IMG/VR virus record: IMGVR_UViG_3300021960_000008
DNA: 37,169 nt
Strand: one strand, 5' to 3'
Source of the DNA: a virus
A program made the position numbers and the translations under genes. This document shows, piece after piece, positions 5,973-30,727 of the stretch (the first letter of the stretch is position 1; every line of letters begins with the position of its first letter). The notes beneath the pieces were generated by a model. That model searched no databases. It worked only from the letters and a program-made list of their open reading frames with translations, and was not told where the DNA came from.

Positions 5973-5973
5973 A

Positions 5974-6590: not shown

Positions 6591-6604
6591 TGTAATCCTC
6601 CCTT

Positions 6605-15749: not shown

Positions 15750-17935
15750 TGGCTAGAGTACATCCAATACAAACAAATTTTACTGCAGGGGAACTAAGTC
15801 CTAAGTTAGCAGGTCAAGTAGATTTTAAAAAATATTCTAATGGTGTAGAAACACTAGAAAACATGACTGTTTTTCCGCAAGGTGGAGCTACAAGAAGATA
15901 TGGCTCTAGATTTATTTGTGAAGTAAAAGATTCGTCTGCGACTACAAGACTTATACCTTTTGAATTTAATGACGAACAAGCATACATATTAGAATTTGGA
16001 AATAATTATATAAGATTTTTTAAAGACCAAGGACAAATAACAGAGGCAGATAAAACTATTACAGGAATAACAAAAGCAAATCCAGCAGTTGTAACAACAT
16101 CAACATCACATGGATATTCTAATGGAGACGATATTTGGATAAACAGCGTAGGTGGTATGACAGAAGTTAATGGTAGAAGGTTTACTATTGGTAATGTAAC
16201 ATCAACAACTTTTGAACTTACAGGTGTAGATTCTACTAACTATACTACATATACATCAGGTGGTACTGCAGCAAAGGTTTACGAAATTGCAACACCATAT
16301 ACATCAGCACAAGTATTTGATTTACAGTTTGCACAATCAGCAGATGTTATGTATATAGTACATCCTTCACATGAGCCAGAAAAGTTATCAAGAACAGGAC
16401 ATACATCTTGGACACTTGCAGATGTAGTTTTTGAAAAAGGACCATACTTAGATACCAATACTACAACAACAACATTGAACCCAGCATCACATACAGTTGG
16501 CACAGGAGTTGCAGTCGTTGCATCAGCTACAACTGGTATTAATGATGGAGATGGTTTTCAATCAACTGATGTTGGTAGATTACTTAGATTTGTAGATGGT
16601 CATGGTGTAATAACAGCTGTTACAGATACATTAAATATTACTATAGAAATACTTGTAGATATGGGTTCAGCAACAGCATCAGCAGATTGGCAACTAGGAA
16701 CTTTTTCAGATACAACAGGATTTCCAAAAGCTGTTACTTTTTTTGAACAACGATTAATTTATGGTGGAACAACATCATTTCCACAAACTATATTTGCATC
16801 TGAATCTGGTTTTTTTGACAATTTTGATGTAGGTGATAGTTCTGATGCAAAAGCATTTGTTTATACAATTGCAGCGAACAAAGTCAATGTAATAAGGTTT
16901 TTAGCACCAGCACGTGATTTAATTATAGGAACTGCTGGTGGTGAATTTATTGTAGGTAGACCAACAGGTGAACCTTTAAAACCTGGAAATGTAAATATCA
17001 CACAACAAACAACATATGGAACACATACAACACAACCTGTGCAAATCGGAAACACTGTGTTGTTTGTGCAAAGACAAAAACGTAAGCTTAGAGAATTAGG
17101 ATATAATTTTGGTGACGATGCATATGTAGCACCAGATTTAACACTGCTTTCAGAACATATAACAGAAGGTGGCATCGTAGATGTAGACTATGCACAAGAA
17201 CCTGATTCTATTTATTGGGCAGTTAGAAACGATGGTGTTTTACTTGGTATGACATATTTAAGAACACAAGACATTGTTGCATGGCACAAACACACTTTAG
17301 GTGGTACAAGTGCAGCAGTTAAATCAGTTTCTACTATTGCAGAAGCAGACGAGCAAGAAACATATTTAATAGTAAGTCGTACAATAAACAGTGCTACAAA
17401 ACAATATGTAGAATATTTAGACAGTACACTAAATCAAGATTCTGCTTTGTCAGGAACAGTTACAGGTTCGTCTACAAGTGTAACAGGACTAGACCATCTA
17501 GAAGGTGAAACAGTGCAAATACTTATAGATGATGCAGTTTATCCTACACAGACTGTAACCAATGGAGCAATCACTGTAAGTTTGCCTAGCAGCTTTGGTT
17601 CTAAAACTATAGAGATAGGTTTAGGATTTACTTCTACAATAAAAACAATGAAACCAGAGGCTGGTTCACAAGCAGGTACTGCACAAGGCCGAAAAAAAAG
17701 GTATAATGAAGTTAGCGTGCGATTATTAAATAGTGTTGGTGTAACAATTAATGGCGACCAATTACCTTTTAGAACATCAGCAGATGAAATGGGTGAGCCA
17801 ATACCAGCATTTACAGGAGATAAAAGAGTTACTAATCTTGGATGGGATAGAGAAGGACAAATAACAATACAACAAACTCAACCCTTGCCTTTAACTGTAT
17901 TAAGTATAACAGGCACATTAGTAACTAGTGATTAG
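15749..17935 (+). CDS. Tail tubular protein B / nozzle (T7 gp12-like) with an inserted small beta domain
   Basis: 728 aa. The N-terminal TNFTAGELSPKLAGQVDFKKYSNGVETLENMTVFPQGGATRRYG follows the gp12-like pattern. The insert KANPAVVTTSTSHGYSNGDDIWINSVGGMTEVNGRRFT... is a common phage tail-protein module. Confidence 0.7.
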   Translation: MARVHPIQTNFTAGELSPKLAGQVDFKKYSNGVETLENMTVFPQGGATRRYGSRFICEVKDSSATTRLIPFEFNDEQAYILEFGNNYIRFFKDQGQITEADKTITGITKANPAVVTTSTSHGYSNGDDIWINSVGGMTEVNGRRFTIGNVTSTTFELTGVDSTNYTTYTSGGTAAKVYEIATPYTSAQVFDLQFAQSADVMYIVHPSHEPEKLSRTGHTSWTLADVVFEKGPYLDTNTTTTTLNPASHTVGTGVAVVASATTGINDGDGFQSTDVGRLLRFVDGHGVITAVTDTLNITIEILVDMGSATASADWQLGTFSDTTGFPKAVTFFEQRLIYGGTTSFPQTIFASESGFFDNFDVGDSSDAKAFVYTIAANKVNVIRFLAPARDLIIGTAGGEFIVGRPTGEPLKPGNVNITQQTTYGTHTTQPVQIGNTVLFVQRQKRKLRELGYNFGDDAYVAPDLTLLSEHITEGGIVDVDYAQEPDSIYWAVRNDGVLLGMTYLRTQDIVAWHKHTLGGTSAAVKSVSTIAEADEQETYLIVSRTINSATKQYVEYLDSTLNQDSALSGTVTGSSTSVTGLDHLEGETVQILIDDAVYPTQTVTNGAITVSLPSSFGSKTIEIGLGFTSTIKTMKPEAGSQAGTAQGRKKRYNEVSVRLLNSVGVTINGDQLPFRTSADEMGEPIPAFTGDKRVTNLGWDREGQITIQQTQPLPLTVLSITGTLVTSD

Positions 17936-17968: not shown

Positions 17969-18397
17969 ATGCTCATAGCCACAGGTGTATCTGCAGGCTT
18001 TTCATTACTAGGAATGTATCAAAGCTATAATACAGCAAAGACAAATGCTAGATTTATAGAAAAACAAAACCAATACAATGCAGAACTAGAAAAACAAGCA
18101 CAGATAGCAAGTGCATTAGCATTATCACAAAGAAGACAAGCAAGTCTAGGAGTTAGAGGTGTAACAGGAACTGGCTCAGAACTCTACATTGAAAATGAAA
18201 ACTCTAAAATTTTACGTGAAAACATAGCAGCAATAACTAAAAGAGCAGTGTTTGCAAATGCAGGAGTAGGCCTTCAAAAATTTACAGCACAACAAAATGC
18301 GATTTATGGTGGAGCAATGAATGTAACAAATTCAATTATGTCTTACCAGCAATTTAGACAACAAAAAGATTTAGCAGAAAAAGGATTATTAGATTAA
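17969..18397 (+). CDS. Internal virion protein (T7 gp14-like position) with an N-terminal transmembrane segment
   Basis: 142 aa. It has the hydrophobic N-terminus LIATGVSAGFSLLGMY and follows the nozzle gene. Confidence 0.5.
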   Translation: MLIATGVSAGFSLLGMYQSYNTAKTNARFIEKQNQYNAELEKQAQIASALALSQRRQASLGVRGVTGTGSELYIENENSKILRENIAAITKRAVFANAGVGLQKFTAQQNAIYGGAMNVTNSIMSYQQFRQQKDLAEKGLLD

Positions 18398-20500
18398 ATG
18401 AAAGTACCTAAATTACAGAAACAATACTTACCAATACAAAGTGGTATAGGTATACAATCAGGTGACCCTGGAGCATTTACTGCAGGCATAGGACAACTTG
18501 GTCAAAAAATAGCTGATGTCTTAGGACAACAATATAATATAAAACTTAGCAAGCAAAATAGAGTTAGAATAGATGGTGAAAAATTACAAGCAAAAACAGA
18601 ATTTTATAATTTAAATGACCAATATAAAGAGGATTTAAAAGCTAAAACTTTAGGAACTTTAAATCCAAATGAATATCAAGGAATATATGAAAAAAGAGTA
18701 AATAAGTTTTTAAAAGATTCTACAAAAAAATATCACTCACAAACAATGGCAGAAGTGCAAGGTGAATTAATGTGGGAATCACGTTTAGTATATGATGAAA
18801 TAAGAGATATTACATCATCATTGCAACAAACAAAAAATAAAGATTTATTTATAAATGAAACTGTACCTAGTTATAGAAAAAGATATAATGAAAAATCAAC
18901 AGCAGGTGGTATTAATGCTGACTTTCAAAGTTTTATTATTGATTTAAATGCTATGAAAAACAGTTTGTCAGCAGAAGAATTTGATAAATTGCTAGAAAAT
19001 AATAGATATGAAGCTAATAAAGCATTATTAAGTTTAAACATAAAAACAAAAATGCGAGAAGAATTAAAGCTAGAAAATGTTTCTGAATCTCTTATCAACG
19101 ATAGAATGGATGAAGGAATAAGTTTGTTAAAAATGATAGAAGAATTAGAAACTAATGGTATAACAACATTAGATACAAAAGAAAAATTATCACCAGACAA
19201 TCCTGTTGTTAAAAATATGATAGACGATATCACAGAAGAATTAGATGCTTACAATAAAGCTACTGAAAAACAAGGAAAATTTAAAGTAAATCAGGCAAAA
19301 AAAATTATTCCTGATTTGATAGACCAATACGACAAAGCAGAATCATATGACGATATGAAAAGAATTAGTCAAGAAATTGATGATGCAATGAATGACTTGC
19401 CTTTAGAAGAGAGAGCTAAATATGATAAGCTTGTTAAAAATGAAGTTGCAGAAACTGAAAGGTCAATAAAACTTTATAGATTATTGTTAGATTCTGCAAA
19501 TCAAGGTTTATACGATGATTATTTTCACGATAAAGTTTTAGATTATGTAGATATGGATATGCTTACAAAAGCACATGCAACAGAAATAATTTCTGCTGGT
19601 AAAAGCAAAAAAGAACTTTTAGATAAAACGATAAACGATGTTGTTCTTAAAAACAATTTAAAAATTTTATTAACTGAATTAAATGGTTCACAAGAAATGA
19701 TTGATGTAATAACTACTTCAAAAATGCAAGGCCAATCTAGACTAATTGCATTAGAAAGCATGAAAGAATCTATGAGTTCTAAATATAATCAAAAAGCAGG
19801 AGATGCTATACAAATTTATTTAGAAACAATAGAAGCAGGAATGAAACAAGGATTTACTATGGATGAAATTCTTTCTAACAAATTAAACGTAGGTGGTGAA
19901 AGCACAGGAAATTTAGTAAAAGATATTGTAAATTTTGTTAAAAGTGATGCATATACTAAAGGAGTTGACAATGCTAAAAGCAGAGCTAACATTGTCCAAG
20001 ATATTAAAAACGAACTAACACAAAATCAAAACTTAGTAGTAGTAAATGGAAATCCTGCATATCTTTCAGATGCGCAAGCTCTTGGATATTATTTTTCTAA
20101 AAAACTTGATATTGCAAATACTGAGTTTGATAACCAATGGAGAGAAAGAAGGACAATAGGAACTAGTCAGCAAACACAACCTGATGGAACAATTGTAGAA
20201 TATCCTGTATATGAATCTATTGTTGAATATAGTAAAAGACAAGACTTATACAAATTGGCTAAAAATGCAAGATTAAATTTAACTCCTAAAGAATTTACAA
20301 AATTAGGTCAAGCTTTAGGTTTTGATGATGCAAATGTTAAAGCTGTTGCAACAGAAATTTATAAAGTACCTGGTCAAAAACCAATACAAAAACAAGAAGA
20401 AGATAAAAGTGATAGAGTTACAGACGTAAAAAAAGAAGCTATAAATATACACAAAAATAAAATGAGTGAACAGGATAAAGAAAAATATGGCGTTGAATAA
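18398..20500 (+). CDS. Internal virion / ejection protein (T7 gp15-like position), K/E/N-rich and helical
   Basis: 700-aa ORF that follows the stop codon of the previous gene without a gap. The call rests on composition and synteny, and I recognise no motif. Confidence 0.55.
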   Translation: MKVPKLQKQYLPIQSGIGIQSGDPGAFTAGIGQLGQKIADVLGQQYNIKLSKQNRVRIDGEKLQAKTEFYNLNDQYKEDLKAKTLGTLNPNEYQGIYEKRVNKFLKDSTKKYHSQTMAEVQGELMWESRLVYDEIRDITSSLQQTKNKDLFINETVPSYRKRYNEKSTAGGINADFQSFIIDLNAMKNSLSAEEFDKLLENNRYEANKALLSLNIKTKMREELKLENVSESLINDRMDEGISLLKMIEELETNGITTLDTKEKLSPDNPVVKNMIDDITEELDAYNKATEKQGKFKVNQAKKIIPDLIDQYDKAESYDDMKRISQEIDDAMNDLPLEERAKYDKLVKNEVAETERSIKLYRLLLDSANQGLYDDYFHDKVLDYVDMDMLTKAHATEIISAGKSKKELLDKTINDVVLKNNLKILLTELNGSQEMIDVITTSKMQGQSRLIALESMKESMSSKYNQKAGDAIQIYLETIEAGMKQGFTMDEILSNKLNVGGESTGNLVKDIVNFVKSDAYTKGVDNAKSRANIVQDIKNELTQNQNLVVVNGNPAYLSDAQALGYYFSKKLDIANTEFDNQWRERRTIGTSQQTQPDGTIVEYPVYESIVEYSKRQDLYKLAKNARLNLTPKEFTKLGQALGFDDANVKAVATEIYKVPGQKPIQKQEEDKSDRVTDVKKEAINIHKNKMSEQDKEKYGVE

Positions 20501-23500
20501 CACTATACCTACAAGAACAGAATTGATGCAAGCTGGTTACGATGTAAAAACAGTAGATAGTATTATAGGAAACCGTAATACTCTTTTAAAAAAACAAGGA
20601 TTTAGTGAACATGATATAAATGTTTATGATGGTGTTTATCCTAGAGATAAAGAACTTATACCTTCTTTAATGTTTGCTTTTGATAATAAATTTAATCTTA
20701 CAAAAAATGAATACGAAAATAGCAAAAACAATCCTGAAATATTGTCACAATTAATAGACGAAAAAGCAAAATCATTTAATAATTATTACGAAAAGCTTTA
20801 TACAAATGATAAGAATTTTACTAAATTAGCTACAGATGGTTTGCTAAATTTACAAAAACAAAAACCCTTTAAAACCCCAGATTTGTTACAACAAAATTTA
20901 ATAAATCCTGACGGCACAAATATAGCAGATTATTTAGGAACAAATAATATTGGCTTATATGATTATGATATAGGTAAACCTGTTTATGATTATTTGTTTT
21001 CACGATACCCTGATTTTACACAAGAAAACAAAGATAATTTGCACTATCTACTTAGCCGTATAGCTTCTAATGAAAGCAACACTACTATGAAATATGATGC
21101 AGATAAAAATAGAGGTGGAGCTTTCGGATATGATACAAAAAATGAAATTACTGCACCTAATAGTTTTCGTGGTGCATTAACTTTGTTGCAAAGACAATAT
21201 GATAGAGATAATGACCCTGTTCCATTTTGGGTGTTAGATGCATTAAAACACAATAATCCAACAAGATTAAGTCCAGCTCAAGAAATAGAATTGCAAACAG
21301 CAATATATAATAGTGTGCCTGCCAAAATGAGATTAGGAATAGCTAAAGGTAACAAAGAAGTCATGTTAGATTATTACAGAATTTATGTAAATGACAATAA
21401 ACAAAAAGTTGAAGAATTTGCAAAACTATTAGAACAAAACGATAACGTAGTACCTGTTGGTTTTGATTTACCATATTTTAGTGATACTGATTATTCAGTA
21501 CAAAATACTTTTTTAGAGCCTTATGCAGATAGAGTTAAAAACTTTTTTGGTGGCCAAGGTTATAATGCTATCTTAGGAAATGGTAGTTTAAATCATAGTT
21601 ACATTGGAAGAGGCATAGATTATGCAAGATTTCATTTTGGCTATATGAGTAAAGATGAAGCAATGAATAGAATTGCTGTTGCTGATTCAATTCATCAAAG
21701 TCGTAGCAATGGTTTTAATTCTTTTATGCATGAACTTGTTACTTTCGGACTTAATTATCCAACATATTCTGGATTCGGCAGACTTTTTGCTGCAGGCACA
21801 AGTTTTACAAAAATGCCTTTAATTCAATCAATTATAGGTGGAGCTGGTAGTTTTGTAGGACCAGAACTTATGCACCAACCAATACTTGCTGCTCTTAGAG
21901 ATGGTCAAAAAATAAACAACTTAGAACAATTAAATGATTATTTGTGGTCTAATGAAGCATTGCAAGTATATATGGATTCAGCAGTTTTAGGTTCAGTAAC
22001 TGCAGGTAGTGCAATAATGTTTAGACGAGCCAATAGTCAATTGTTAGCAAATCAAATAGCAAAAAATTACAACAAAAATAATTTTTTAATGTGGGGTGGA
22101 GCTTTAGGAAAAACAGAAGCTGCAGGTTCTATATTTGGATTAGGAACAGGTATGTCTGTTTTAGATTATTACCATACAGGTGAATTTAATTTTCAAGACA
22201 ATTATCTTTCTGCAAGTGCATTTGTTGGTGCTGTAGGTCTTTCTAAATATGCATTTCGTAATTTTAAATCAATGTTTGAAACAAATAAAATAAGAGATGA
22301 CCATTTTAAAGAAGGAACACTTGCAAATGATTTCTTAAAAACTGGATATAAAGACCCAGCTACTGTTGCTGGTGAAAATACTTTTGATTTATACATGAAA
22401 CTTAAGAAAGGTGTAAATGTAATAATTCCTAAAAAATTTAAAATTAATGAAGAAATTACAGGCAATAGTAAAGTTGTAAACGAAAAAGAACAAAACGGAA
22501 CAATCTTGTTAGAAACTGAAAGTCCTTCTGGTGCAAAAAATATTGAATTAGCAGAAAATGTTTTGAAAGATAATGTAGATTCAAATCTTAGATATAATGA
22601 AGAAAAACAAAAGTATGAAAACATACTAGAATCTGAACCACGTGAATATAAGATAAATCAAACAGACACAGAAAAATTGTCATTTAATAATGAAAGACCT
22701 AATTTACAACGAAATTATTCTTTATCGTTTGTAAAAAATGCATTAGAAGAAGTAGTAAGACATTATGGAACTACGACTGACACAGTTTTATTGCTAGCAA
22801 AAGATTATCCAGAATTTAATGAGTATATTGCAGAATCAGGAATTATGCCTGTACCTGATGTTGAAAAAAATTTAAAATATTGGAAACAAGATACTGAATA
22901 CGATAAAACAAAAGTATTTGGTACAAGCTTTGAAACAACTATTGACCAACACAACCAGGTAATATCAAATATTTTTAATTCAAAAAAAAATCAGTTTCAA
23001 GAATTAAATTTAAATGTTGACACAGGTTCAATTGCTATTTTTAAAACAGCAGATATGTATGTTGGATTGCCGTCAAAATTATACAAAATATTGTCAAATC
23101 CTAAAAATTTAAAAGGTGATGAGGAGTATGACAAACCATCTATGGTATTTCATCCTAAAAGAGGAATGGATTTAAATGATGTAAGAGAGTTTATGTATAG
23201 TACAGATGTGCAAGAAATTGGTCGTTTAATTTTTATAGACAAAGATGGTAAGGTTCTAGCTAGTGTAAAACCTTTAAATGTAGCACGTTATGCACAATTA
23301 ATAGAAAAAGCTAAAAAAGAATATAAAAGAGATGATGAAGCTATAATTATTAAAGATACAGGTTTAAAAAATGGTGGAACACCACATGAACCTCATGTTT
23401 TAATTGAATCAGTATTTGATGAAAAAACAGTAAATTCTATATATAATCAAAAAACAGGGTTAGACTATATAGATGCATCTATGATAGTTTTAGCTGTTAC

Positions 23501-26500
23501 TGGTAAAAAAATACAAAACATACCAACTGGGTCTTATGGTCATTATGACCCTACTGATAACACTGTAAACATAAGTCCTATAAAACATGTAAGTGCTTTA
23601 AAATTTGGCACTGGAGAGTCAACTGAAAAGATAGGTGGATTTATTGGAAAACAATTGCCTGGTTTTGCTTACACTATAAGTCAAGCTATTACAGCTTTTC
23701 ACGAAATAGGTCACATGGAACAAGGAAATGCAGATGGTTTTACACCAAGTAGTTATGGGTACGAAAGTTGGGGGGAGTTTATCAAAGCTTATGGAGTTGA
23801 AACAACTTTCGGAGGAGCAAAAGCTATTGATTTGCCGTTTGATTTTACAGTAGAAGAATTTAGAAATAGAGCAGCTAAATGGGAAGAAGGATTTAAAGCA
23901 ATAGAAAGAATGGATGCTGATGCTTTATACAAACTTTTTGGTACAGGAAATATTATTGGTAATTTAACAAAAGCAAAAGGTTTTATATATAATGCTATTA
24001 ACAAAAAAACTGGAGAAATAAAAGGAGTATTAGATAAAACAATTTTAGATGCATTATATGAAGAAGCACTAGCAGATGCAAAAATAGCTGAAAAAGAATG
24101 GCAAAAAGAAATTGATGCTATGGGTCTTCAAATTACACCAAAAGACATTTTATCTGTTTGGAATAAAACTAATGCAAGAGATTTTTTACCACCTGAATTA
24201 TATGACAAAATAGCAAGAGCTGATGAAGCATTAAAAAAAGAAATTATTAAACAAGCAATGAAAGGCATTATACATGATGATTTAAAAGTAATAGTTGATT
24301 TAATAAATGATGTAGAAATAACAAAACCTGATTTTGCAGCACAAGCTAAAAAAAGATTTGCAGAAGCTGTGCAAAGAGAAATGAATCGCAGAGGAATGGT
24401 TACATTAGAACAAATTACAAATGAAATTGCAGATATAAGTTTAATTATAAGACCTGTTACTATGTTTACAAACATTACTCGTTCGAAAATGGGATATGTA
24501 AAAGTAACTAAAGAATCTTTTATGAAAATAATTAAAATGAATGAAAAAGAAATTGCAAAAGAAATAGAGAAAGTCAAAAAAAAGATTGCAGCAGCACCAG
24601 GAGCAGAGACAACAGCAAATCTAACTAATTATGAAAAATATTTAAATGCGTTTGACGCTGAAGAGTTATCATATAGACGTAATAGTGCAGAAATGTATGC
24701 TGACTTTATGAGCGCACTTTTAGCACATCCAGAACTTGTTAAAGATAGAGCGCCTAATGCTCTAGAATTATTCCATAATTTTATGGACGAACGACCAGCT
24801 TTTAAAAAGATTTATACAGAAATATTAAATCAATTAAATGCAGGAACTAATGCTAGAGCAGATGCTGCTATTAAATTTATGGCTGACGATATTAAAAAAG
24901 AATCTGACAATGCTATATCAAGACTTAGCAAAAGAACAAAATCATTAATATTAGACCCATTAAGCAACAATTTTATAGATTTAGCAAAACAAATTTTTGT
25001 ATCAAAAGAAGCTTACATAAATGCAAGAACAGATAGTTATAGACCATCTTTAACAAATGGTATAGCAAGTTGGAAAAATACTGAACTTTCACCAACAGGA
25101 AAACCTACTGGTCGTTATGTAGGACTTAGTGAAGCAGAAAGAGTACAGGCTAAAATAGATGATTACAAAATGTTTGGGTCAACTGCCGAAGCATATCAAA
25201 TGGACACGTTAAACAATGTAGTTAATCCTGCAAAAGAATATCTTGCAGAAAAAGGTAAACCCTATGATTATTTTTCTGTCCTTATAATAGCTAACAGATT
25301 ACACTCTCTTAAAAAAACTGGAGAAAAAGATATTGAATCTCCTTATAAGTTAATATCAGAAGATGAATATTTTGTAAACTTAGAAAAAGCTCAAGAACAA
25401 GTAGAAGCTCTCGAAAATAAAGAAGATGCAGAATATGAATTACAACAAGCTAAAGAAAAATTAAATGTTTTAAAAGGTTTAGAAAAATATATAAATCAAT
25501 TTAGAACTATAGAAGATTTGAAAACACATTTTGATGAAAACTATCCAGAATTAAATAAGATTGCGGAAGTTTTTTATACACAAAATCGTGAATTTATGAG
25601 AAATGCTTTTAGTCATGGTGCAACTGAATCTATAACTAGAGAACAATATGATATGTTTATAGAAAAAGCACCTATAAAATTTTATGCTACATTAAAACCA
25701 GTAGATAAAATATATGATGCAATAGCTGGTCATGATTATACTGGAAGTTTTGGTGGTAGTAAACTTGACACAGCTTTTCACGAAGGTTTTTTTAATACAC
25801 CTTTAGACCCTGTTTTTGCAACAGTACAAAAATTATCTGTTATTGGTGCAAGAGAAAAACGTAATCAAGCACTTCTTTCAATGATAGGAAAACCTATTGA
25901 TGGAGAATATATGTCAGAACGTATTCCTACATCTTCTATAAATTACAAAGAAGATATAGATATGTGGAAAGCATTAGATAACACAGCAGGATTTTTTATA
26001 CAATATGCAGATGTGTTTCAATATTATGATTCATGGCATAGCATGACTATACCTTTTGATACTAGTGGTCTTACAAAAGAAGAATTAAAAGAATATAATG
26101 AACACAATCCTAAAAACACACGTGAACACATAGAGTTTGTACGAAAATTTTCTAAAAAATTATTTAAAGAAAAATTAGCTCGACCATCAGCAGTGCCAGT
26201 AGAATATAAAGGAAAAGTAGTAGAGCAAACTAAAAGATTTGTAGTATCTGGAATGAGTAGGTATGCAATTTATTCTGGTAAAGGCAGTGGAGATGTTCGC
26301 AAAATAGTTGATGTAATAACAAGAGAGGAATTAACTAAGGAAGAATATGTTGAATTAGTTGCAGAAAAAAATGAAGAACTAGCTGAGTTTTACGAAAAAT
26401 ATAAAAAAGCTCCTAAAAGAAAAAGAGTGCCTATAGGTTTTTATTCAAAGAAACAATTTGGAATTGTAAGGCCAGAAATTAGAATTAGCTATGAAGACTT

Positions 26501-28730
26501 TAATCCAAGAGCAGAAATAAAAAATAGAAAAGAAATGGAAAAAAAAGGTTATGTATTAGAAGGAGCGCCAATGCTACCTAGAGTATCACGTAAAATACGT
26601 ATTGGTAGAAGAACAATAACAGTAGAAACAAATGAAATAGATAGAGCAGGATATTCTAGACCTGAATATCGTTGGGTAAATGAATTTATGTCATTAGACC
26701 CTATTGAACTTAAATTAATTTCCAAATTTGTGTTAAGCAGTGTTAGTTTAGTAAAACAAGGTTATACAGGTGCAAACCCTGCGTTTTGGTGGACAAACAT
26801 AATGATGGACGTAGGAACTGTGTTACAAAATACAGATGTTAAATTAGTAAATTTATCAATAAAAAAATGGAAAGATGGGTTGCCACCTGACCAAAAAAGA
26901 TTAATGACTGTTTTTGGACGAGATGTATCTTTTGGATATAGTCTTGTTACTGCAATGGTAGAATCAATAAAACAATCTAGATATCTTTATGCTAAACAAG
27001 AAAATTTAGATGCAATAAGTAAATGGATGTATCAATCTGCTGTTGTTCTTGCTAGAAAAGATAGAAGTAATTTTGCACAAACTTATACAGATGCATTACC
27101 TAAAGAAGTTGTTAAAGATATAGAAGATTTAACAAAAGACCCTAAAGATTATGTAGATTTTATCAAAGACCCTGTTACTCGTTCTGCACAACAGTTTACT
27201 GCAGCATGGAATGTTTTAAGTCAAATTGGTAAAGCAACAGAGTTTGTAACTAGAAATGCGGTGGCTCGTTATAAAATAAATCAAAAACAAGCAGGCAAGT
27301 TAAATCAATCACAAAGACAAATAGCACAACTAGTAAGACGACAAATTGTTGATTTTACACAGGGAGGAAATCCTCTATTAGAAATACCGTTTCTTTTTTA
27401 TAGAGCTACAGTAGCTGGTTTTTATGCAGTAGGTAAAAGTGAAAAAAGGTCTAGGCAAGAAGACCCTAGACAAAAATGGTACAAAAGAAATTTTTGGCAA
27501 GCAACTTGGAAATATGCAGCAACATTTGAATTACTAAGAGCGCTTGGACTATTTGGTTTTATGGGCGAAGAAGTAGAAAAAATGATGAAAGCTGTTAAAA
27601 AATACGATGATATATTTTATTGGATTGTACCTATTGGAAAAGAGCAAGTAAATACAACTGAAACAGCAGCGTTAGGATTTAATGCATATAGACCTATATA
27701 TTTTACTTTTAGAAAATCACCATCAGTTTCTGTTCAATCAGAAATTTTAAGAAATCTAATTTCTCCAGTTATTAAAGAAGCAAGATACAGTATTTTAGCT
27801 CCTTTACAAGATGCTGTGGGTGTAAAAAGAGATACCCCTATTACAAGAGGTGACTCAGATTGGCTTACATCAGAAAGTGGAACAGATTTTAAAAACGTTG
27901 TAACAAGAAATGTACCATCAGAATCTGGTGCATATGAAATGGTTGGTGATTTAATTAGTATAGTTCTGCAAGACCAAATAGAAAATCCTTTTAATGGTAT
28001 AGGCATGATTGACCCTGATGTTATAAAAGGAATGAAATCAGAAAATGCGTTTCAACCAAATATAAGTGAGTATAGACCTTTTGCATCTATAGTTGGTCCT
28101 TTAGATTTAGGAAGAGTTCATAAAGAATATTACAAACAAGCTCTTGCTAGTTTTTGGAACAAATATGTTTCATCAACAATGTTAACATTTAAAGCTGATA
28201 TAGGCGAAACAAAAGATAAACCAGAAGGTGCTGTGTCTAAATATACAGAAAGTATTTTTGGAAGAGTGACTGGTATCAATAGATTTCTAAGAGTAGGAAA
28301 TGTTATGGGAGAAAGAGAAGCATCAACTGATATTAAAAATTATGATAATTCAAAAGCTTTAGATAGAGCAAATGAAAGAATATTGTTAGATAAGTTATAT
28401 TCTGGAAATGATTTAACAGAAGAGGAAGCTAACGAATTAGATGTATATTTACTACAAAACAAAAACAATACAAACTTTAGAATTATGATTAAAAATAGTT
28501 TATATAACAATGGTAATTACACATATTTCTTAGACAAATATTATAATGCCCAAAGTAAAGCTAAAAGAAGGTATTTTTTAGAAAGAATAATAGAATCTAA
28601 TAAAGGATATAATATGGACTATAGTAAAGAAAAAGAACGTGAAAAGGCAGAAAAAGAACTAAATACTAATAAAGAAACTACAAAACCTAAAGAAGAGGAA
28701 TATGAGTTTATACCAGAAAGTTTAAGATAA
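20487..28730 (+). CDS. Giant (about 2,747 aa) internal virion / ejection protein (T7 gp16-like position) with an HExxH zincin-like module
   Basis: A single uninterrupted ORF. I prefer the ATG at 20487 (the track uses GTG at 20466). HEIGH is encoded at 23700..23714, preceded by GSYGHYDPTDNTVNISP. There are hydrophobic segments at about 21750..22330 and near the C-terminus. A possible lysozyme-like ...SNESN...GGAFGY lies near 21069. Confidence 0.7.
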   Translation: MALNNTIPTRTELMQAGYDVKTVDSIIGNRNTLLKKQGFSEHDINVYDGVYPRDKELIPSLMFAFDNKFNLTKNEYENSKNNPEILSQLIDEKAKSFNNYYEKLYTNDKNFTKLATDGLLNLQKQKPFKTPDLLQQNLINPDGTNIADYLGTNNIGLYDYDIGKPVYDYLFSRYPDFTQENKDNLHYLLSRIASNESNTTMKYDADKNRGGAFGYDTKNEITAPNSFRGALTLLQRQYDRDNDPVPFWVLDALKHNNPTRLSPAQEIELQTAIYNSVPAKMRLGIAKGNKEVMLDYYRIYVNDNKQKVEEFAKLLEQNDNVVPVGFDLPYFSDTDYSVQNTFLEPYADRVKNFFGGQGYNAILGNGSLNHSYIGRGIDYARFHFGYMSKDEAMNRIAVADSIHQSRSNGFNSFMHELVTFGLNYPTYSGFGRLFAAGTSFTKMPLIQSIIGGAGSFVGPELMHQPILAALRDGQKINNLEQLNDYLWSNEALQVYMDSAVLGSVTAGSAIMFRRANSQLLANQIAKNYNKNNFLMWGGALGKTEAAGSIFGLGTGMSVLDYYHTGEFNFQDNYLSASAFVGAVGLSKYAFRNFKSMFETNKIRDDHFKEGTLANDFLKTGYKDPATVAGENTFDLYMKLKKGVNVIIPKKFKINEEITGNSKVVNEKEQNGTILLETESPSGAKNIELAENVLKDNVDSNLRYNEEKQKYENILESEPREYKINQTDTEKLSFNNERPNLQRNYSLSFVKNALEEVVRHYGTTTDTVLLLAKDYPEFNEYIAESGIMPVPDVEKNLKYWKQDTEYDKTKVFGTSFETTIDQHNQVISNIFNSKKNQFQELNLNVDTGSIAIFKTADMYVGLPSKLYKILSNPKNLKGDEEYDKPSMVFHPKRGMDLNDVREFMYSTDVQEIGRLIFIDKDGKVLASVKPLNVARYAQLIEKAKKEYKRDDEAIIIKDTGLKNGGTPHEPHVLIESVFDEKTVNSIYNQKTGLDYIDASMIVLAVTGKKIQNIPTGSYGHYDPTDNTVNISPIKHVSALKFGTGESTEKIGGFIGKQLPGFAYTISQAITAFHEIGHMEQGNADGFTPSSYGYESWGEFIKAYGVETTFGGAKAIDLPFDFTVEEFRNRAAKWEEGFKAIERMDADALYKLFGTGNIIGNLTKAKGFIYNAINKKTGEIKGVLDKTILDALYEEALADAKIAEKEWQKEIDAMGLQITPKDILSVWNKTNARDFLPPELYDKIARADEALKKEIIKQAMKGIIHDDLKVIVDLINDVEITKPDFAAQAKKRFAEAVQREMNRRGMVTLEQITNEIADISLIIRPVTMFTNITRSKMGYVKVTKESFMKIIKMNEKEIAKEIEKVKKKIAAAPGAETTANLTNYEKYLNAFDAEELSYRRNSAEMYADFMSALLAHPELVKDRAPNALELFHNFMDERPAFKKIYTEILNQLNAGTNARADAAIKFMADDIKKESDNAISRLSKRTKSLILDPLSNNFIDLAKQIFVSKEAYINARTDSYRPSLTNGIASWKNTELSPTGKPTGRYVGLSEAERVQAKIDDYKMFGSTAEAYQMDTLNNVVNPAKEYLAEKGKPYDYFSVLIIANRLHSLKKTGEKDIESPYKLISEDEYFVNLEKAQEQVEALENKEDAEYELQQAKEKLNVLKGLEKYINQFRTIEDLKTHFDENYPELNKIAEVFYTQNREFMRNAFSHGATESITREQYDMFIEKAPIKFYATLKPVDKIYDAIAGHDYTGSFGGSKLDTAFHEGFFNTPLDPVFATVQKLSVIGAREKRNQALLSMIGKPIDGEYMSERIPTSSINYKEDIDMWKALDNTAGFFIQYADVFQYYDSWHSMTIPFDTSGLTKEELKEYNEHNPKNTREHIEFVRKFSKKLFKEKLARPSAVPVEYKGKVVEQTKRFVVSGMSRYAIYSGKGSGDVRKIVDVITREELTKEEYVELVAEKNEELAEFYEKYKKAPKRKRVPIGFYSKKQFGIVRPEIRISYEDFNPRAEIKNRKEMEKKGYVLEGAPMLPRVSRKIRIGRRTITVETNEIDRAGYSRPEYRWVNEFMSLDPIELKLISKFVLSSVSLVKQGYTGANPAFWWTNIMMDVGTVLQNTDVKLVNLSIKKWKDGLPPDQKRLMTVFGRDVSFGYSLVTAMVESIKQSRYLYAKQENLDAISKWMYQSAVVLARKDRSNFAQTYTDALPKEVVKDIEDLTKDPKDYVDFIKDPVTRSAQQFTAAWNVLSQIGKATEFVTRNAVARYKINQKQAGKLNQSQRQIAQLVRRQIVDFTQGGNPLLEIPFLFYRATVAGFYAVGKSEKRSRQEDPRQKWYKRNFWQATWKYAATFELLRALGLFGFMGEEVEKMMKAVKKYDDIFYWIVPIGKEQVNTTETAALGFNAYRPIYFTFRKSPSVSVQSEILRNLISPVIKEARYSILAPLQDAVGVKRDTPITRGDSDWLTSESGTDFKNVVTRNVPSESGAYEMVGDLISIVLQDQIENPFNGIGMIDPDVIKGMKSENAFQPNISEYRPFASIVGPLDLGRVHKEYYKQALASFWNKYVSSTMLTFKADIGETKDKPEGAVSKYTESIFGRVTGINRFLRVGNVMGEREASTDIKNYDNSKALDRANERILLDKLYSGNDLTEEEANELDVYLLQNKNNTNFRIMIKNSLYNNGNYTYFLDKYYNAQSKAKRRYFLERIIESNKGYNMDYSKEKEREKAEKELNTNKETTKPKEEEYEFIPESLR

Positions 28731-28756
28731 ATGTGATATAATAATGGAGAATAACA

Positions 28757-30727
28757 ATGGCAGTAGCAACAACAATTATTAAAAATAGTTACAGTGGAGA
28801 TGGCAGTCAAACTACCTTTGCGTATGCTTTTAAAATATCTGCAGATGCAGATTTAGAAGTTATTATAAGGTCTGCAGCAGGTACAGAAACTGTTAAAACA
28901 CTTACGACACATTATACAGTAACTGGTGCAGGAGAAGCATCAGGGGGTAATGTAGTATTTACTGCAGGAAATATACCTACAGCTACTGAAACAGTAGTTA
29001 TTAGAAGGTCTACAACTCAAACACAAACACTTGACTTAGTAGAAAACGACCCGTTTACAGCAGATTCTGTAGAAGGTGCATTTGATAAAAACCTATCAAT
29101 AGCACAAGAACTTCAAGAACAAATAGATAGAAGCATAAAAATTTCCAGAACAAATACTATGACCTCTACCGACTTTACCACATCTGCAAGTGATAGAGCA
29201 AGTAAAATTCTTGCCTTTGATACAAGTGGTGAGATATCAGTAACACAAGAATTAGGCACATATAAAGGTACAGATACTACTGTTATAACAGAGGCCTATG
29301 TGCAAAGAGATATAATTAAATCTACAACAGCAGGACAACTTAATAATGTATATATTTGTGTAGCAGATGCAGTTGTAGGAGATTCTTTAACAGATACAGA
29401 CCATTTTGAATTATTAATAGATGCTGTAAGTGCAGCAACAAGTGCTACAAACGCAGCTAGTTCTGCCTCAGCAGCAGCAACCTCAGCTACAAACGCTGCA
29501 ACATCTGCTTCAAATGCCTCAACTTCAGAAACCAACGCAGCTACATCAGAAACAAACGCAGGTACAAGCGCAACAAATGCAGCATCTAGTGCAACTGCAG
29601 CAGCATCAAGTGCGACTTCTGCTGCAAGTAGTGCAACGACAGCTACAACTAAGGCATCAGAAGCATCAACATCAGCAACTAATGCTGCTACAAGTGAAAC
29701 TAATGCTGGAACATCAGCAACTAATGCAAGTAATTCAGCTACAGCAGCAGCAACATCAGAAACAAATGCTGCCAACTCAGCGACAGCAGCAGCAACTAGT
29801 GCAACTAATGCCTCTAATAGTGCGACAGCTGCAGCTACAAGTGCGACAAATGCTGGGACTTCTGAAACCAATGCAGCGACTTCTGCTACTAATGCCGCTA
29901 CTTCTGCTACTAATGCAGCGACTAGTGAAACAAATGCAGCAGCAAGTTATGATAACTTTGATGATAGATATTTAGGAAGTAAAACTTCTGACCCAACACT
30001 AGATAATGATGGCGATGCTCTGGTTACAGGTGCATTATATTTTAATAGTTCATCGAATGAAATGAAAGTGTATGGCGGCTCTTCATGGGCAGCCGTAGCA
30101 CCCACTGCAACAAGTGCAAGTGATATTACAACAGGTACACTAGCTGATGCAAGACTTAGTTCAAATGTAACATTAAATGATGGCACACAAACACTTACAA
30201 ACAAGACACTTACAACACCTGTTATATCTTCTATTTCAAACACAGGTACAGTAACTTTACCAACAGCTACAGACACATTAGTCGGTAGAGCAACAACTGA
30301 TACTCTAACAAACAAGACAATAGATTCAGCCACAATTACAAAACACGTGCAAGAAACTGCGACAGTATCAGCTACTGCAGCAACTGGCACAATAAATTAT
30401 GATGTAAAAACACAATCAATTTTATATTACACAACAAACGCATCTGGCAACTTTACAGTAAATGTAAGAGGAGATGGTAGTACAAGTCTTGATAGTATTA
30501 TGGATACAGGAGATGTTATTACTGTCGTATTTTTAGTCACCAATGGTGGTACAGCATACTATAACAATACTTTTCAAATAGATGGTAGTGGTGTTACACC
30601 AGAATGGCAAGGTGGTTCAGCACCTAGTGGTGGCAATACTAACAGTATAGATGCTTATACATATTCAATAATTAAAACAGGGAGTGCTACGTTTACTGCC
30701 TTGGCAGCTCAAACACAATACGCATAA
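28757..30727 (+). CDS. Tail fibre protein with a long heptad-repeat shaft
   Basis: 656 aa. The N-terminal YSGDGSQTTFAYAFKI is an adaptor-type motif. About 25 heptads of (S/T)(A/E)TNA(A/G)(T/S) follow. After them comes the conserved fibre motif DDRYLGSKTSDPTLDNDGDALVTGALYFNSSSNEMKVYGGSSW. Confidence 0.8.
   Translation: MAVATTIIKNSYSGDGSQTTFAYAFKISADADLEVIIRSAAGTETVKTLTTHYTVTGAGEASGGNVVFTAGNIPTATETVVIRRSTTQTQTLDLVENDPFTADSVEGAFDKNLSIAQELQEQIDRSIKISRTNTMTSTDFTTSASDRASKILAFDTSGEISVTQELGTYKGTDTTVITEAYVQRDIIKSTTAGQLNNVYICVADAVVGDSLTDTDHFELLIDAVSAATSATNAASSASAAATSATNAATSASNASTSETNAATSETNAGTSATNAASSATAAASSATSAASSATTATTKASEASTSATNAATSETNAGTSATNASNSATAAATSETNAANSATAAATSATNASNSATAAATSATNAGTSETNAATSATNAATSATNAATSETNAAASYDNFDDRYLGSKTSDPTLDNDGDALVTGALYFNSSSNEMKVYGGSSWAAVAPTATSASDITTGTLADARLSSNVTLNDGTQTLTNKTLTTPVISSISNTGTVTLPTATDTLVGRATTDTLTNKTIDSATITKHVQETATVSATAATGTINYDVKTQSILYYTTNASGNFTVNVRGDGSTSLDSIMDTGDVITVVFLVTNGGTAYYNNTFQIDGSGVTPEWQGGSAPSGGNTNSIDAYTYSIIKTGSATFTALAAQTQYA
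29424..29947 (+). repeat. Imperfect 21-bp tandem repeats encoding the tail-fibre heptads
   Basis: Periodic (a/t)c(t/a)gc(t/a)ac(a/t)aa(t/c)gc(t/a)gc... units are visible throughout. They produce spurious long ORFs in other frames and on the opposite strand. Confidence 0.9.

Follow-up and report, generated by a model that had tools for sequence, protein, structure and literature searches.

In the analyzed viral sequence (a stretch of 37,169 nucleotides, hereafter referred to as the window), we found a giant gene whose product is probably a polyvalent-type ejection protein, equivalent by position to T7 gp16 (IVP-D) and probably processed in cis by its own zincin. We assign this reading a probability of roughly 55%; virion location, zinc binding, proteolysis and cis-cleavage are the components that we infer from the sequence, while packaging and ejection are suggested by synteny alone. 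The strictly conserved zinc-protease-like module marks a family of giant phage proteins that is large and lacks annotation, and relatives of the window protein carry anti-host effector domains.

A giant gene in the T7 gp16 slot

The phage that carries the giant gene is a marine podovirus of the T7-like kind, and among cultured phages its nearest relative is a pelagiphage. In the window, a terminal direct repeat of 127 bp leaves 37,042 bp of unique sequence, 22.3% of which is occupied by this single gene. Its start codon (ATG at 20487) is preceded by AGGA and lies in a stop-to-stop frame of 20466..28730. The 94%-identical L002 and P0001 likewise have an intact ORF, and dN/dS amounts to 0.41 in comparison to L002. 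Both the size and the T7 gp16 slot claimed by the initial annotation were confirmed, as the gene comes after the tail tube genes and two further genes and ahead of the tail fibre, as does gp16 in T7. The gene and its context are as follows:

15171..17935, + strand: tail tubular proteins A (phrog_394, 1e-55) and B (phrog_376, 2e-205), context anchors
17969..20500, + strand: two genes in the positions of gp14 and gp15, encoding 142 aa and 700 aa (by position only)
20487..28730, + strand: giant ORF in the IVP-D/T7 gp16 slot, 2,747 aa plus stop (8,244 nt)
28757..30727, + strand: tail fibre, matched by many tail-fibre PHROGs, context anchor

On the 5' side, PHROG matches also include the portal, the major capsid protein and a scaffold/prohead-protease-like gene (phrog_458), which is separate from the giant gene. 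The description of the two intervening genes as gp14-like and gp15-like agrees with their size and position, from which these labels are taken, but neither the 142-aa nor the 700-aa protein showed a Pfam or PHROG match.

The slot between tail tubular protein B and the fibre is kept across many phages. In Baldr it holds an ORF of 2,329 aa, and in sister phages it is filled by proteins of ~1,300 aa, in which the C-terminal core of the giant protein is present and the zincin absent; giant and short slot proteins show a mosaic distribution. Comparing the window with L004, the 142-aa protein is 93% identical, whereas identity drops to 43% for the 700-aa protein and to 38% for the giant protein. The 700-aa gene and the giant gene, with a GC content of 0.28-0.31, form one hypervariable, low-GC cassette.

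Alternatively, the giant protein might be no component of the virion but be expressed late as a polyvalent or anti-defence protein of the cytoplasm, its gene simply lying in the structural operon, and sequence and profile searches indeed detected no homology to any experimentally verified ejection protein. We regard this as highly improbable, given that the slot is so widely conserved, that the core also occurs in the sole large slot protein of sister phages, which would otherwise have no gp16 equivalent, and that a distant family member (P0034) comes after a head-closure gene and an adjoining 'DNA ejection' gene.

The HExxH module

The central part of the giant protein contains the following features:

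23421..24983, + strand: putative zincin (gluzincin-like) module, aa 979-1499 (144-sequence alignment, AF2, sub-threshold Pfam and PDB matches, BFVD)
23538..23540, + strand: G1018 in GSYGHY, invariant Gly in the strand before the HExxH helix (100% in 144 sequences)
23700..23714, + strand: HEIGH, comprising the putative zinc ligands and catalytic base H1072, E1073 and H1076 (149/149 homologues reaching the region)
23715..23945, + strand: insertion of the window lineage just after HExxH, aa 1077-1153 (spacing comparison)
23946..24458, + strand: 'block 1' at aa 1154-1324, a conserved helical insert (highest conservation of any stretch in the exhaustive search)
24672..24704, + strand: YRRNSAEMYAD, aa 1396-1406, with E1402 on a helix, putative third zinc ligand (alignment and model)

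HEIGH (aa 1072-1076) is the sole HExxH in the giant protein, while 0.027 would be expected from its composition. The initial annotation had proposed conservation of this motif among homologues as a check, and an exhaustive HMMER search retrieved it in all 149 homologue sequences that extend across the region. The motif is no chance occurrence. The only fully invariant residues in the 144-sequence alignment are G1018, both His and the Glu of the motif (H1072, E1073, H1076), and E1402. The latter is the sole other invariant acidic or His residue and lies within YRxxxxE[LM]YAD on a predicted helix (456-469 of the AF2 model), in which Y1396 and A1405 are each conserved to 99%. The strand pattern described in the initial annotation likewise precedes the motif (G-x-Y/F ... 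I-x-I ... HExxH), GSYGHYDP beginning at aa 1015 and AITAF at aa 1067. Taken together, H1072/E1073/H1076 and E1402 correspond to a gluzincin signature, with an active site predicted to be placed on two helices.

Throughout the family, these two ligand helices are separated by a conserved helical insert of ~260-325 aa, whose block 1 includes the near-invariant residues RGNILG, K1250, A1257, E1298, R1302 and E1313. An Asp found three residues past HExxH in 93% of the family is displaced in the window lineage by an insertion of ~77 aa. A spacing of 70-79 aa is seen only in the window and in P0001; the insertion itself is shared with L004, in which it is conserved. This insertion could alter or abolish the activity of the putative zincin in the window lineage.

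The AF2 model of the module is only moderately confident overall (pLDDT 70, pTM 0.63). It places a helix (50-61) and two strands (74-77 and 82-85, the first containing G1018) ahead of a helix (114-136) bearing HExxH; pLDDT values are 75-83 in the helix and the strands and reach 88 at the motif itself. A helix and a small beta-sheet ahead of the HExxH helix agree with the zincin core fold, and the placement of HExxH on a helix, together with its conservation among homologues, agrees with the zincin superfamily. A second proposed check, the search for a zincin-like fold, had a divided outcome: the order of elements fits, whereas Foldseek with the whole 555-aa module against PDB returned no zincin and nothing at E<=0.001, the top matches being generic helical proteins. 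Here, the large helical insert probably masks the small zincin core. In BFVD, a local match to an 83-aa phage 'Peptidase' was obtained (probability 0.99, E 0.4).

Based on profile searches, almost all sub-threshold Pfam and PDB matches of the module family are zincins (SprT-like, M48, ATLF, MPTase-PolyVal). Among 32 homologous modules, 11 matched SprT-like (best individual E 0.0042), six Reprolysin_3, four ATLF (3e-6), four M48 and one MPTase-PolyVal (PF18818, E 3.3e-6), and effector peptidase M91 was also matched by some members; all of these Pfam zincin matches fall under the curated cut-offs. The family consensus scored 19.0 bits against SprT-like (E 0.0013) and 16 bits against M48 (E 0.01), with gathering thresholds of 25.6 bits (PF10263) and 20.3 bits (PF01435), respectively. 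Neither the consensus nor any member reached the SprT-like threshold, the window copy had no match to this model, and MPTase-PolyVal was matched neither by the window protein or its module (E<=10) nor by the family consensus. In PDB, the profile matches at the strand and HExxH comprised a snake-venom metalloproteinase (E 0.0097), BepA, Ste24 and ADAM8. Of the families named at the outset, SprT-like and MPTase-PolyVal remain the nearest. The more specific assignment to ArdC found no support: the window protein has no ArdC-N domain and no ArdC-type Pfam match, and 20 relatives searched at full length gave no ArdC-N match either.

The module might serve morphogenesis only, either by trimming the giant protein or neighbouring core proteins in the prohead or as a structural element of the internal core that is stabilised by zinc and shows little catalysis or none. 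The large conserved insert between the ligand helices could then be a protein-protein interface, and the loss of the conserved Asp at +3 in the window lineage would be in line with this. There are also precedents, as pre-packaging autoprocessing has been proposed for P1 DdrB, and the zincin region of the N4 virion RNA polymerase (vRNAP) is required for encapsidation while the protein stays uncleaved (PMC5512222). However, the general base E1073 is 100% conserved together with the metal ligands, which argues for catalysis over metal binding alone, and the phage already possesses its separate scaffold/prohead-protease-like gene. We therefore consider a purely morphogenetic role unlikely.

Variable cargo and constant core

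The exhaustive search yielded 369 clusters of proteins, mostly 1.9-4.1 kaa in size. The distance from HExxH to the C-terminus is nearly constant (median 1,120 aa, sd 116), whereas the N-terminal part varies strongly (sd 403). The family layout is thus a variable N-terminal cargo, a zincin and a constant core of ~1,100 aa. The initial statement that most of the protein matches nothing holds where curated libraries are concerned; the window protein itself had no Pfam match in a domain search and no PHROG match in a profile search. Beyond these libraries, however, the protein can be placed in a large family that has not been curated, and it shares two regions with the ordinary-sized slot proteins of sister phages. 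Outside the zincin module, the window protein can be divided as follows:

20511..20630, + strand: double motif 'L..AG[FY]....(K)AGFS..EI', aa 9-48 (kept at the N-terminus of giants)
20940..21524, + strand: helical domain at aa 152-346, which may go back to a lytic transglycosylase or lysozyme fold (alignments A4/A6, AF2, Foldseek)
21579..22340, + strand: Gly/Ala-rich, moderately hydrophobic region, aa 365-618 (common to the ~1,300-aa slot proteins of sister phages)
22341..23420, + strand: poorly conserved linker, aa 619-978 (conserved in closest relatives only)
24969..27833, + strand: conserved C-terminal core, aa ~1495-2449 (common to the zincin-less slot proteins of sister phages)
27834..28727, + strand: aa 2450-2747, tail at the C-terminus (conserved among the giant proteins)

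The relationship to the sister-phage proteins was evident from hhalign comparisons. The core aligned to L021 aa 495-1165 over 543 columns (probability 99.5%, E 1.9e-22) and the Gly/Ala-rich region to L021 aa 85-308 (98.1%, E 1e-13), while the zincin module reached 0.3% against a zincin-less slot protein. Within the giant family, the Gly/Ala-rich region was found in only 25 of 127 members. The C-terminal tail carries, for example, an RF.KV[GS] motif and the invariant residues E2647 and L2651, and the N-terminal double motif faintly resembles the AGFS repeats of DotG/IcmE (E 0.04). For the linker, we found neither a library match nor conservation past the closest relatives. Hydrophobic stretches, as initially described, are present at aa 433-462, 492-512, 2068-2091, 2139-2158 and 2296-2316. 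Their hydrophobicity is only moderate, however, and with a Kyte-Doolittle 19-residue maximum of 1.3 they are no classical transmembrane helices.

The canonical SLT motif has its second element (G-L-M-Q type) about 15-18 residues past the catalytic Glu. In relatives of the window protein, the pattern ES...GG[LV]FQ places a second motif at +15..+18. The window retains E196-S197 within SNESN (aa 194, nt 21066), at the end of AF2 helix 28-46; its second motif, within GGAFGY (aa 210, nt 21114), is a degenerate GGAFG in which the Gln is lost. In the closest subfamily, this Glu is ~90% conserved and the Ser invariant, with L017 and P0096 having Val in place of Glu. The AF2 model of aa 152-346 (pLDDT 78.5, pTM 0.74) was compared to PDB using Foldseek, and ~38 of the top 50 entries were MltF, MltE, phage lytic transglycosylases, g-type lysozymes or GH19 enzymes, none of them significant (best E 0.15; TM 0.2-0.33; RMSD 10-18 A). 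No SLT or lysozyme profile was matched by the A4 profile against PDB, by members against Pfam (E<=10) or by the consensus. Based on the model, this helical domain may derive from a lytic transglycosylase.

Other members of the family encode a broad set of domains, including ddrB-ParB, InPase, LPD22, PBECR3, ART-PolyVal, GGDEF, SNF2/ResIII, MTase and GNAT, and classic polyvalent effectors frequently make up their cargo. In the window protein, only the zincin and the possible transglycosylase-derived domain were recognisable, and no cytoplasmic effector domain was recognised.

These cargo domains bear on what the zincin might act upon. It could be a periplasmic enzyme that breaches the envelope by cutting peptidoglycan peptide stems or lipoprotein tethers alongside the transglycosylase-like domain, which lies upstream of it in the closest subfamily. 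Weak matches to the periplasmic M48 protease BepA fit such a role, and the internal virion proteins of podoviruses often have muralytic domains, including an endopeptidase in Pf-WMP3 (PMC4819975). Most members, however, pair the zincin with cytoplasm-acting cargo (ParB nuclease, SNF2-methylase, ART, GGDEF). The known phage cell-wall peptidases belong to the M15, M23, CHAP and NlpC/P60 groups, and HExxH gluzincins are not known among them, which also speaks against this role. Furthermore, this phage group has separate lysis enzymes, namely a lysozyme in Baldr and a peptidase M15 in HTVC010P-type phages (PMC8477408), and we judge an envelope-breaching zincin to be very unlikely.

Cleavage of host proteins involved in defence, the envelope or cell division, by a zincin acting in trans after ejection, which was the initial hypothesis, appears rather unlikely to us. 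The catalytic residues show strict conservation even among highly divergent proteins, and the matches of some members to anthrax lethal factor (ATLF) and to M91 point towards an effector. A hypervariable, exchangeable cassette is what would be expected of arms-race genes (PMC10504331), and such activity is one possible role of the metallopeptidase (MPTase) domain in polyvalent proteins (PMC5512222). Nevertheless, the zincin is constant and coupled 1:1 to the core, while an arms-race effector is expected to be variable or optional. Sister phages of presumably similar hosts manage without it, and no substrate-recognition domain was found.

Proposed role and comparison with known systems

For the preferred reading, a polyvalent-type ejection protein with in-cis processing, we propose a scaffold composed of the Gly/Ala-rich region and the helical core, as in the ~1,300-aa slot proteins of sister phages, to which two elements would have been added: the N-terminal helical domain, which may stem from a lytic transglycosylase, and the gluzincin-type metallopeptidase module of ~520 aa. 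The core would ensure that the protein is packaged into the capsid and ejected through the tail. Located where cargo and core meet, the zincin would cut the polypeptide in cis, either at head maturation or after ejection, and release the N-terminal part from the channel-forming core. This freed part would be directed at the envelope in the window phage and would consist of enzymatic effectors in relatives. As the zincin is always located at the junction between variable cargo and constant core, cis-processing is favoured at least as much as an attack on host proteins. However, the N4 vRNAP is packaged uncleaved despite its zincin (PMC5512222), and a zincin at such a position need not mean self-cleavage.

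More tentatively, and with considerable doubt on our part, the combination of a zincin and a helical core of ~1,100 aa could represent a general podovirus delivery chassis, which accepts any N-terminal cargo, delivers it by means of the core and releases it in the host through the zincin. If so, muralytic domains, nucleases, ADP-ribosyltransferases, methylase-helicases and cyclases would all count as its cargo, as would the RNA polymerase of N4, and the pelagiphage family and the C-terminal domain (CTD) of N4 gp50 would be either anciently homologous beyond sequence detection or convergent. The swapping of giant and short alleles between near-identical pelagiphages would then be nature's own with/without experiment, run in the ocean's most abundant phage-host system.

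Among known zincins, SprT-like, Spartan and Wss1-type as well as M48 minimal zincins gave the best, albeit sub-threshold, sequence matches, extending over the strand and the HExxH helix. The third ligand of SprT and Wss1 is a nearby His. In the window protein, unlike these enzymes, the candidate is an invariant Glu ~330 residues downstream, and there is no DNA-binding context. ArdC of conjugative plasmids combines an ssDNA-binding ArdC-N domain with a C-terminal MPTase, a zincin of the same broad kind as the putative one of the window protein, and is transferred along with the DNA (PMC5512222), but it belongs to a conjugative element and the window protein to a phage structural operon.

T7 gp16 shares with the window protein its slot and large size. 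It has an N-terminal lytic transglycosylase and an ejectosome-forming body, and the window protein, predicted to be mostly helical, may have a transglycosylase-derived N-proximal domain with Glu-Ser. T7 gp16, which is not known to contain a zincin, is half the size of the window protein. Neither the protein nor the A1/A5 profiles gave a PDB sequence match to T7 gp16 or any other solved structure, and an hhalign comparison with L036, a match to phrog_6651 ('internal virion protein'), resulted in a probability of 0.8%. IVP-C as well as IVP-D proteins often diverge beyond recognition, and IVP-D proteins host lysozyme and cytoplasm-destined domains (PMC4819975).

N4 gp50, an ejected podovirus protein regarded as an IVP-D homologue (PMC4819975), shows the same order as the giant family, i.e. 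cargo, HExxH subdomain and a mostly helical C-terminal end of >1,100 aa. Its CTD consists of an HExxH subdomain (C1) followed by a helical subdomain of ~1,125 aa (C2) (PMC13434306). HELVH is located at aa 2228 of 3,500, leaving 1,272 aa after it, as compared to the giant-family median given above, and N4 gp50 and the window protein have the local pattern G-x-Y-G ... I-Y-L ... HExxH in common. In contrast to the window protein, the cargo of N4 gp50 is an RNA polymerase, and no long conserved insert of the block-1 type could be aligned in it. Regarding homology to the gp50 CTD, hmmsearch returned nothing, and in hhalign comparisons with a 12-sequence profile of N4-like CTDs, the module reached a probability of 3.4% and the core one of 0.3%.

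A further close likeness is to the polyvalent proteins, such as P1 DdrB/DarB and the N4-like vRNAPs, which are giant multidomain proteins encoded among virion genes, as in the window (PMC5512222). In these, a zincin MPTase with HExxH and a distal Glu, for which autoprocessing has been proposed, is the constant hub domain of injected proteins, with variable inserts between its ligand helices (PMC5512222). As judged from its sequence, the giant protein would share these properties, being large and multidomain, encoded with virion genes and built around a putative MPTase hub. There are differences as well: the window protein, unlike polyvalent proteins, matches none of the Pfam polyvalent models, and T7-like internal core proteins are not discussed in PMC5512222. 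The family-specific zincin insert and the ~1,100-aa core that always follows it belong to the giant family and are not described in that study. The signature domains of polyvalent proteins (ddrB-ParB, InPase, LPD22, PBECR3, ART-PolyVal, SNF2+MTase, GGDEF) do occur in the window's relatives, in which disparate enzymatic effectors are joined in one polypeptide.

Genomic setting of the giant gene

One uninterrupted reading frame spans 20466-28730, and its ATG at 20487 is preceded by an AGGA Shine-Dalgarno-like sequence. The 2,747-aa product (hereafter the giant, to which all aa numbers refer) is encoded by 8,244 nt, or 22.3% of the genome, in agreement with the initial annotation in both size and position. 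It lies between the tail tubular and two unmatched genes on one side and the fibre on the other. The window carries an exact direct terminal repeat, most simply explained as overlap in an assembly that is circular or has terminal redundancy, and is a phage genome, circularly permuted or overlap-assembled, with 37,042 bp of unique sequence.

Features of the window discussed in the text
1-127 and 37043-37169: exact 127-bp direct terminal repeat
5137-6894, minus strand: eight small ORFs (54-92 aa), tightly packed or overlapping
~18000-29000: low-GC island (0.28-0.31 vs 0.34-0.41 elsewhere)
20487-28730, plus strand: giant gene
20511-20630, plus strand: N-terminal double motif (aa 9-48)
21066, plus strand: SNESN motif
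21114, plus strand: GGAFGY motif
23700-23714, plus strand: HEIGH motif (aa 1072-1076)
23715-23945, plus strand: first lineage-specific insertion
~24459-24660, plus strand: second lineage-specific insertion
~25900-26650, plus strand: third lineage-specific insertion

The neighbouring genes have the make-up of the late operon in T7-like podoviruses. PHROG matches upstream of the giant comprise portal, a scaffold/protease-like gene, major capsid, tail tubular A (phrog_394, 1e-55) and tail tubular B (phrog_376, 2e-205), and the order after tail tubular B is a 142-aa protein, a 700-aa protein, the giant and the tail fibre. Neither the 142-aa nor the 700-aa protein has a library match, so that the labels gp14-like and gp15-like of the initial annotation hold by position only. 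No tRNA or tmRNA genes were found in the whole window, and no Rfam family reached its gathering threshold. The run of minus-strand ORFs (GC 0.30), with a strongly negative GC skew (-0.31), diverges from the long plus-strand late operon and may hold early or accessory genes.

An artefact or a pseudogene could be ruled out, because the ORF is intact in independent contigs (a separate IMG/VR contig and an ENA assembly both contain a 94%-identical copy; dN/dS 0.41) and because the related contig L004, whose giant is 38% identical, keeps the motifs. The nearest cultured relative, Pelagibacter phage EXVC032P Baldr, shows 76% nucleotide identity in the portal-to-capsid region only, and a 2,329-aa 'hypothetical protein' occupies the equivalent slot. 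Baldr was also the sole match in a tblastn search of the giant against GenBank phages, with 9% of the query covered.

A conserved gluzincin-like module in a widespread family

HEIGH lies where the initial annotation had placed it and is the only HExxH in the giant, with 0.027 expected from composition; the other motifs quoted there (GSYGHYDP from aa 1015, AITAF from aa 1067, SNESN and GGAFGY) were likewise found in place. The hydrophobic stretches described are present but only mild (Kyte-Doolittle maximum 1.3), and no classical TM helices were found in the giant at Kyte-Doolittle >1.4.

The whole giant had no match in Pfam, PHROGs or PDB sequences, and a word-indexed homologue search returned only the 94%-identical twin for the full-length query and a single fragment for the module profile. 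First relatives were obtained via synteny, with tail tubular B as the anchor in IMG/VR. Proteins in the giant's slot are of two kinds, namely giants of 2,315-2,756 aa with exactly one HExGH, or proteins of ~990-1,440 aa with none. Six giants are only 14-22% identical to the window protein, and H1072, E1073, G1075 and H1076 are invariant among them, as is a second patch around R1397, E1402 and P1415.

An exhaustive HMMER search with aa 800-1999 yielded 369 clusters (50% identity) at E<=1e-3, 129 of them at E<=1e-10, nearly all consisting of proteins of 1.9-4.1 kaa. Similarity is concentrated in two blocks, at aa ~1150-1325 (block 1) and ~1390-1490. HExxH occurs 0-30 residues upstream of block 1 in 149/156 sequences (HEIGH 107, HELGH 17, HEVGH 12), and the remaining seven are N-terminally truncated fragments that end short of the motif position. 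A lack of conservation of this motif among homologues would have refuted the initial annotation, an outcome clearly excluded by its presence in 149/149 sequences reaching the region. In a 144-sequence module alignment, exactly five columns are 100% invariant: G1018, H1072, E1073, H1076 and E1402, the last within a YRxxxxE[LM]YAD motif. Two His and a Glu on one helix, combined with an invariant Glu (here E1402, the putative third zinc ligand) on a helix further along, are the hallmark of gluzincins. The insert between the ligand helices is long and itself conserved (typically ~260 aa, ~325 aa in the window).

For aa 945-1499, an AlphaFold2 model that drew on 31 homologues (pLDDT 70, pTM 0.63) comprises in segment numbering a helix at 50-61, strands at 74-77 and 82-85 and a long HExxH helix at 114-136, with E1402 on a later helix at 456-469; this predicted layout is the expected zincin core topology. 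Foldseek of the whole module against PDB found no solved zincin, only generic, spurious helical matches. In BFVD, it matched a single large viral protein that has no name (E 2e-7) and, locally, an 83-aa 'Peptidase' of Corynebacterium phage Dina (probability 0.99, TM 0.63 on target). The module profile against PDB drew sub-threshold matches, most of them to zinc metalloproteases, which in every case were hit over the strand and HExxH (snake-venom metalloproteinase, E 0.0097; BepA; Ste24; ADAM8). Thirty-two modules were also scanned singly against Pfam.

Recurring Pfam families among 32 modules, all sub-threshold (number of members)
SprT-like: 11
Reprolysin_3: 6
ATLF: 4 (best 3e-6)
Peptidase_M48: 4
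Zn_peptidase_2: 3
M91: 2
M78: 2
MPTase-PolyVal: 1 (3e-6)
M76: 1

The window copy itself matches none of these recurring families, and the core HMM consensus scored 19 bits for SprT-like (cut-off 25.6) and 16 bits for M48 (cut-off 20.3). Membership of a curated Pfam family was ruled out, with scores below each family's own threshold. Overall, we regard the module as a divergent zincin within the broad SprT / M48 / MPTase group. The ArdC part of the initial label (ArdC/polyvalent-type) was not borne out: nothing ArdC-specific was detected, and no ArdC-N domain was found in the window protein or in 20 full-length relatives.

Scaffold, core and exchangeable alleles

In profile-profile comparison, two regions are common to the giants and the ~1,300-aa proteins that fill the slot in sister phages (L006, L008, L014, L021, L024).

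Regions common to the giant and the short slot protein of L021 (hhalign)
Gly/Ala-rich region, aa 365-618 vs L021 aa 85-308: probability 98.1%, E 1e-13
Core, aa ~1495-2449 vs L021 aa 495-1165: probability 99.5%, E 2e-22, 543 columns

Between both regions lie ~185 aa in the short protein vs ~880 aa, including the zincin, in the giant. The short proteins lack the zincin module (hhalign probability 0.3%) and the N-terminal helical domain, which argues that the giant is the scaffold of the short slot proteins plus two additions. Since the Gly/Ala-rich region is limited to a pelagiphage-like subfamily (25/127 members), the universal unit is the zincin plus core. Among 127 full-length members, the stretch from HExxH to the C-terminus hardly varies in length (median 1,120 aa, IQR 1,091-1,164, sd 116), and the part before HExxH ranges from 529 to 2,868 aa (sd 403). 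The window lineage is extreme, with 1,675 aa after HExxH, because of its three lineage-specific insertions. The first directly follows HExxH and displaces an Asp at +3 that is present in 93% of the family; its conservation in L004 (38% identical) shows that it is under selection. Taken together, the 369 clusters make up a large, uncurated and widespread family. Its members always combine the strictly conserved gluzincin-like module with a constant core, and exchangeable cargo precedes the two.

In other members, the zincin-core unit is preceded by GGDEF, InPase, ddrB-ParB, LPD22, SNF2/ResIII/Helicase_C, methyltransferase, GNAT, HATPase, PBECR3 or ART-PolyVal domains, and such cargo domains are hallmarks of injected 'polyvalent proteins' (PMC5512222). 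PHROG matches of members include 'DarB-like antirestriction', 'endolysin', 'minor head protein' and 'virion structural protein'. The gene of one distant member, P0034, comes after a head-closure gene and a 'DNA ejection' gene, a neighbourhood that speaks against the unlikely rival reading of the giant as a non-virion protein. No homology was detected between the core and slot proteins of more distant podoviruses, including one with a PHROG 'internal virion protein' match, and the C-terminal core profile found nothing in PDB. The distant 4,094-aa member P0078 (L043:8001-20285) has precomputed matches to PF28553 WH_1, PF28554 DUF8437 and PF28555 Helicase_dom, very recent families absent from the Pfam copy searched; none of the five genes before it matches a PHROG, and a resolvase gene comes after it. 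On the contig of P0034, the head-closure protein (P22 gp10-like, Phage_stabilise) is fused to RCC1/WD40-like beta-propeller repeats (L045:313-1836).

The low-GC island has a sharp mosaic boundary and coincides with the 700-aa and giant genes, at which identity between L004 and the window also drops.

Identity of L004 proteins to the window
Tail tubular A: 100%
Tail tubular B: 97%
142-aa protein: 93%
700-aa protein: 43%
Giant: 38%

This mosaic pattern fits a published hypervariable region of HTVC010P-type pelagiphages, which surrounds their internal virion protein genes (PMC10504331). L006 is 82% identical in tail tubular B and 93% in the fibre N-terminus, yet has the short zincin-less allele. 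Giant and short alleles appear to be exchanged among close relatives, and in marine pelagiphage-like podoviruses, the zincin giant is one of the two alleles that can replace each other. The gp15-like and giant genes together are flagged as the arms-race hotspot cassette in these phages.

At the N-terminus, the closest subfamily has the motif LESxNxNI...GG[LV]FQ[IF] (13/121 members), with a Glu-to-GLxQ spacing matching that of SLT-type lytic transglycosylases (LTs). The window keeps E196-S197 but has GGAFG, and in L017 (14805-21833) and P0096, Val-Ser replaces the Glu-Ser of ES...GGLFQ with GG[LV]FQ kept. If the domain is LT-derived, transglycosylase activity would not be universally retained, and the domain is possibly inactive in the window. 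No SLT match was found by sequence profile (profile, members, consensus); the assignment is ruled out at that level and survives as a structural or motif-level possibility. In the AlphaFold2 model of aa 152-346 (pLDDT 78.5, pTM 0.74), the Glu ends a helix, after which comes a small hairpin. Of the 50 best Foldseek PDB matches, about 38 are MltF, MltE, two phage LTs, g-type lysozymes or GH19 chitinase, all non-significant (best E 0.15, TM 0.2-0.33), which makes a lysozyme-fold origin plausible but unproven. The double motif '..L..AG[FY]....(K)[AQ]GFS..[ED]I', conserved in giants, bears a weak likeness to the AGFS decapeptide-like repeats of Legionella T4SS DotG/IcmE (E 0.04).

Putative role and comparison with known systems

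Few parts of podovirus infection are as little understood as the ejected giant proteins. The conserved gluzincin site is probably catalytic, and the gene has a late, structural genomic context. A morphogenetic or purely structural role of the zincin is a less likely rival reading, against which the full conservation of E1073 speaks. The position of the zincin is fixed between variable cargo and constant core. Two further rivals are a trans-acting effector protease, as the initial annotation envisaged, which is less likely than cis-processing, and an envelope-directed peptidase, which is unlikely. In the self-processing mechanism that we propose, the core would mediate packaging and ejection, as for T7 gp16 / IVP-D and the N4 gp50 C-terminal domain (PMC4819975, PMC13434306), and the zincin would cleave the polypeptide in cis, parting the N-terminal part from the core. 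Autoprocessing has been proposed for polyvalent-protein MPTases; since N4 vRNAP is packaged uncleaved, cleavage, if any, may come only after ejection (PMC5512222).

The core idea of the initial annotation, an ejected giant with a polyvalent-type zincin, was largely right, and as a concept it is already published. New is the family itself, which is uncurated and widespread and couples a split gluzincin to one particular, putative ejection-protein core. Closely related marine phages with the zincin giant or the short zincin-less allele offer a natural comparison, and the cultured member Baldr makes the self-processing hypothesis directly testable. Together with the invariant architecture of the family, these render the role of the zincin in ejected giants testable, and the family-wide alignments are a source for new profile models of proteins now annotated 'hypothetical'.

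For the role of the HExxH subdomain of N4 vRNAP, PMC5512222 gives no more than alternative proposals, and PMC13434306 mentions the motif without assigning it a role. Homology to the N4 gp50 C-terminal domain was rejected at the sequence-profile level, as neither HMM nor hhalign comparison with a 12-sequence N4-like profile detected any (probabilities 3.4% for the module and 0.3% for the core), and the giant cannot be classified into the N4 CTD family, the T7 gp16 family, ArdC or any Pfam zincin family. The likeness is one of layout: in N4, ~1,125 aa with a novel helical structure come after the HExxH subdomain (PMC13434306), with 1,272 aa after HELVH, and a G-x-Y-G / I-x-L / HExxH pattern precedes the motif in both. 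For Hardies and colleagues, this N4 domain is homologous to IVP-D and 'hosts' cargo (PMC4819975). Conceptually, the giant comes nearest to polyvalent proteins with an MPTase hub, and its nearest concrete analogue is N4 gp50; by analogy, it would work like these systems.
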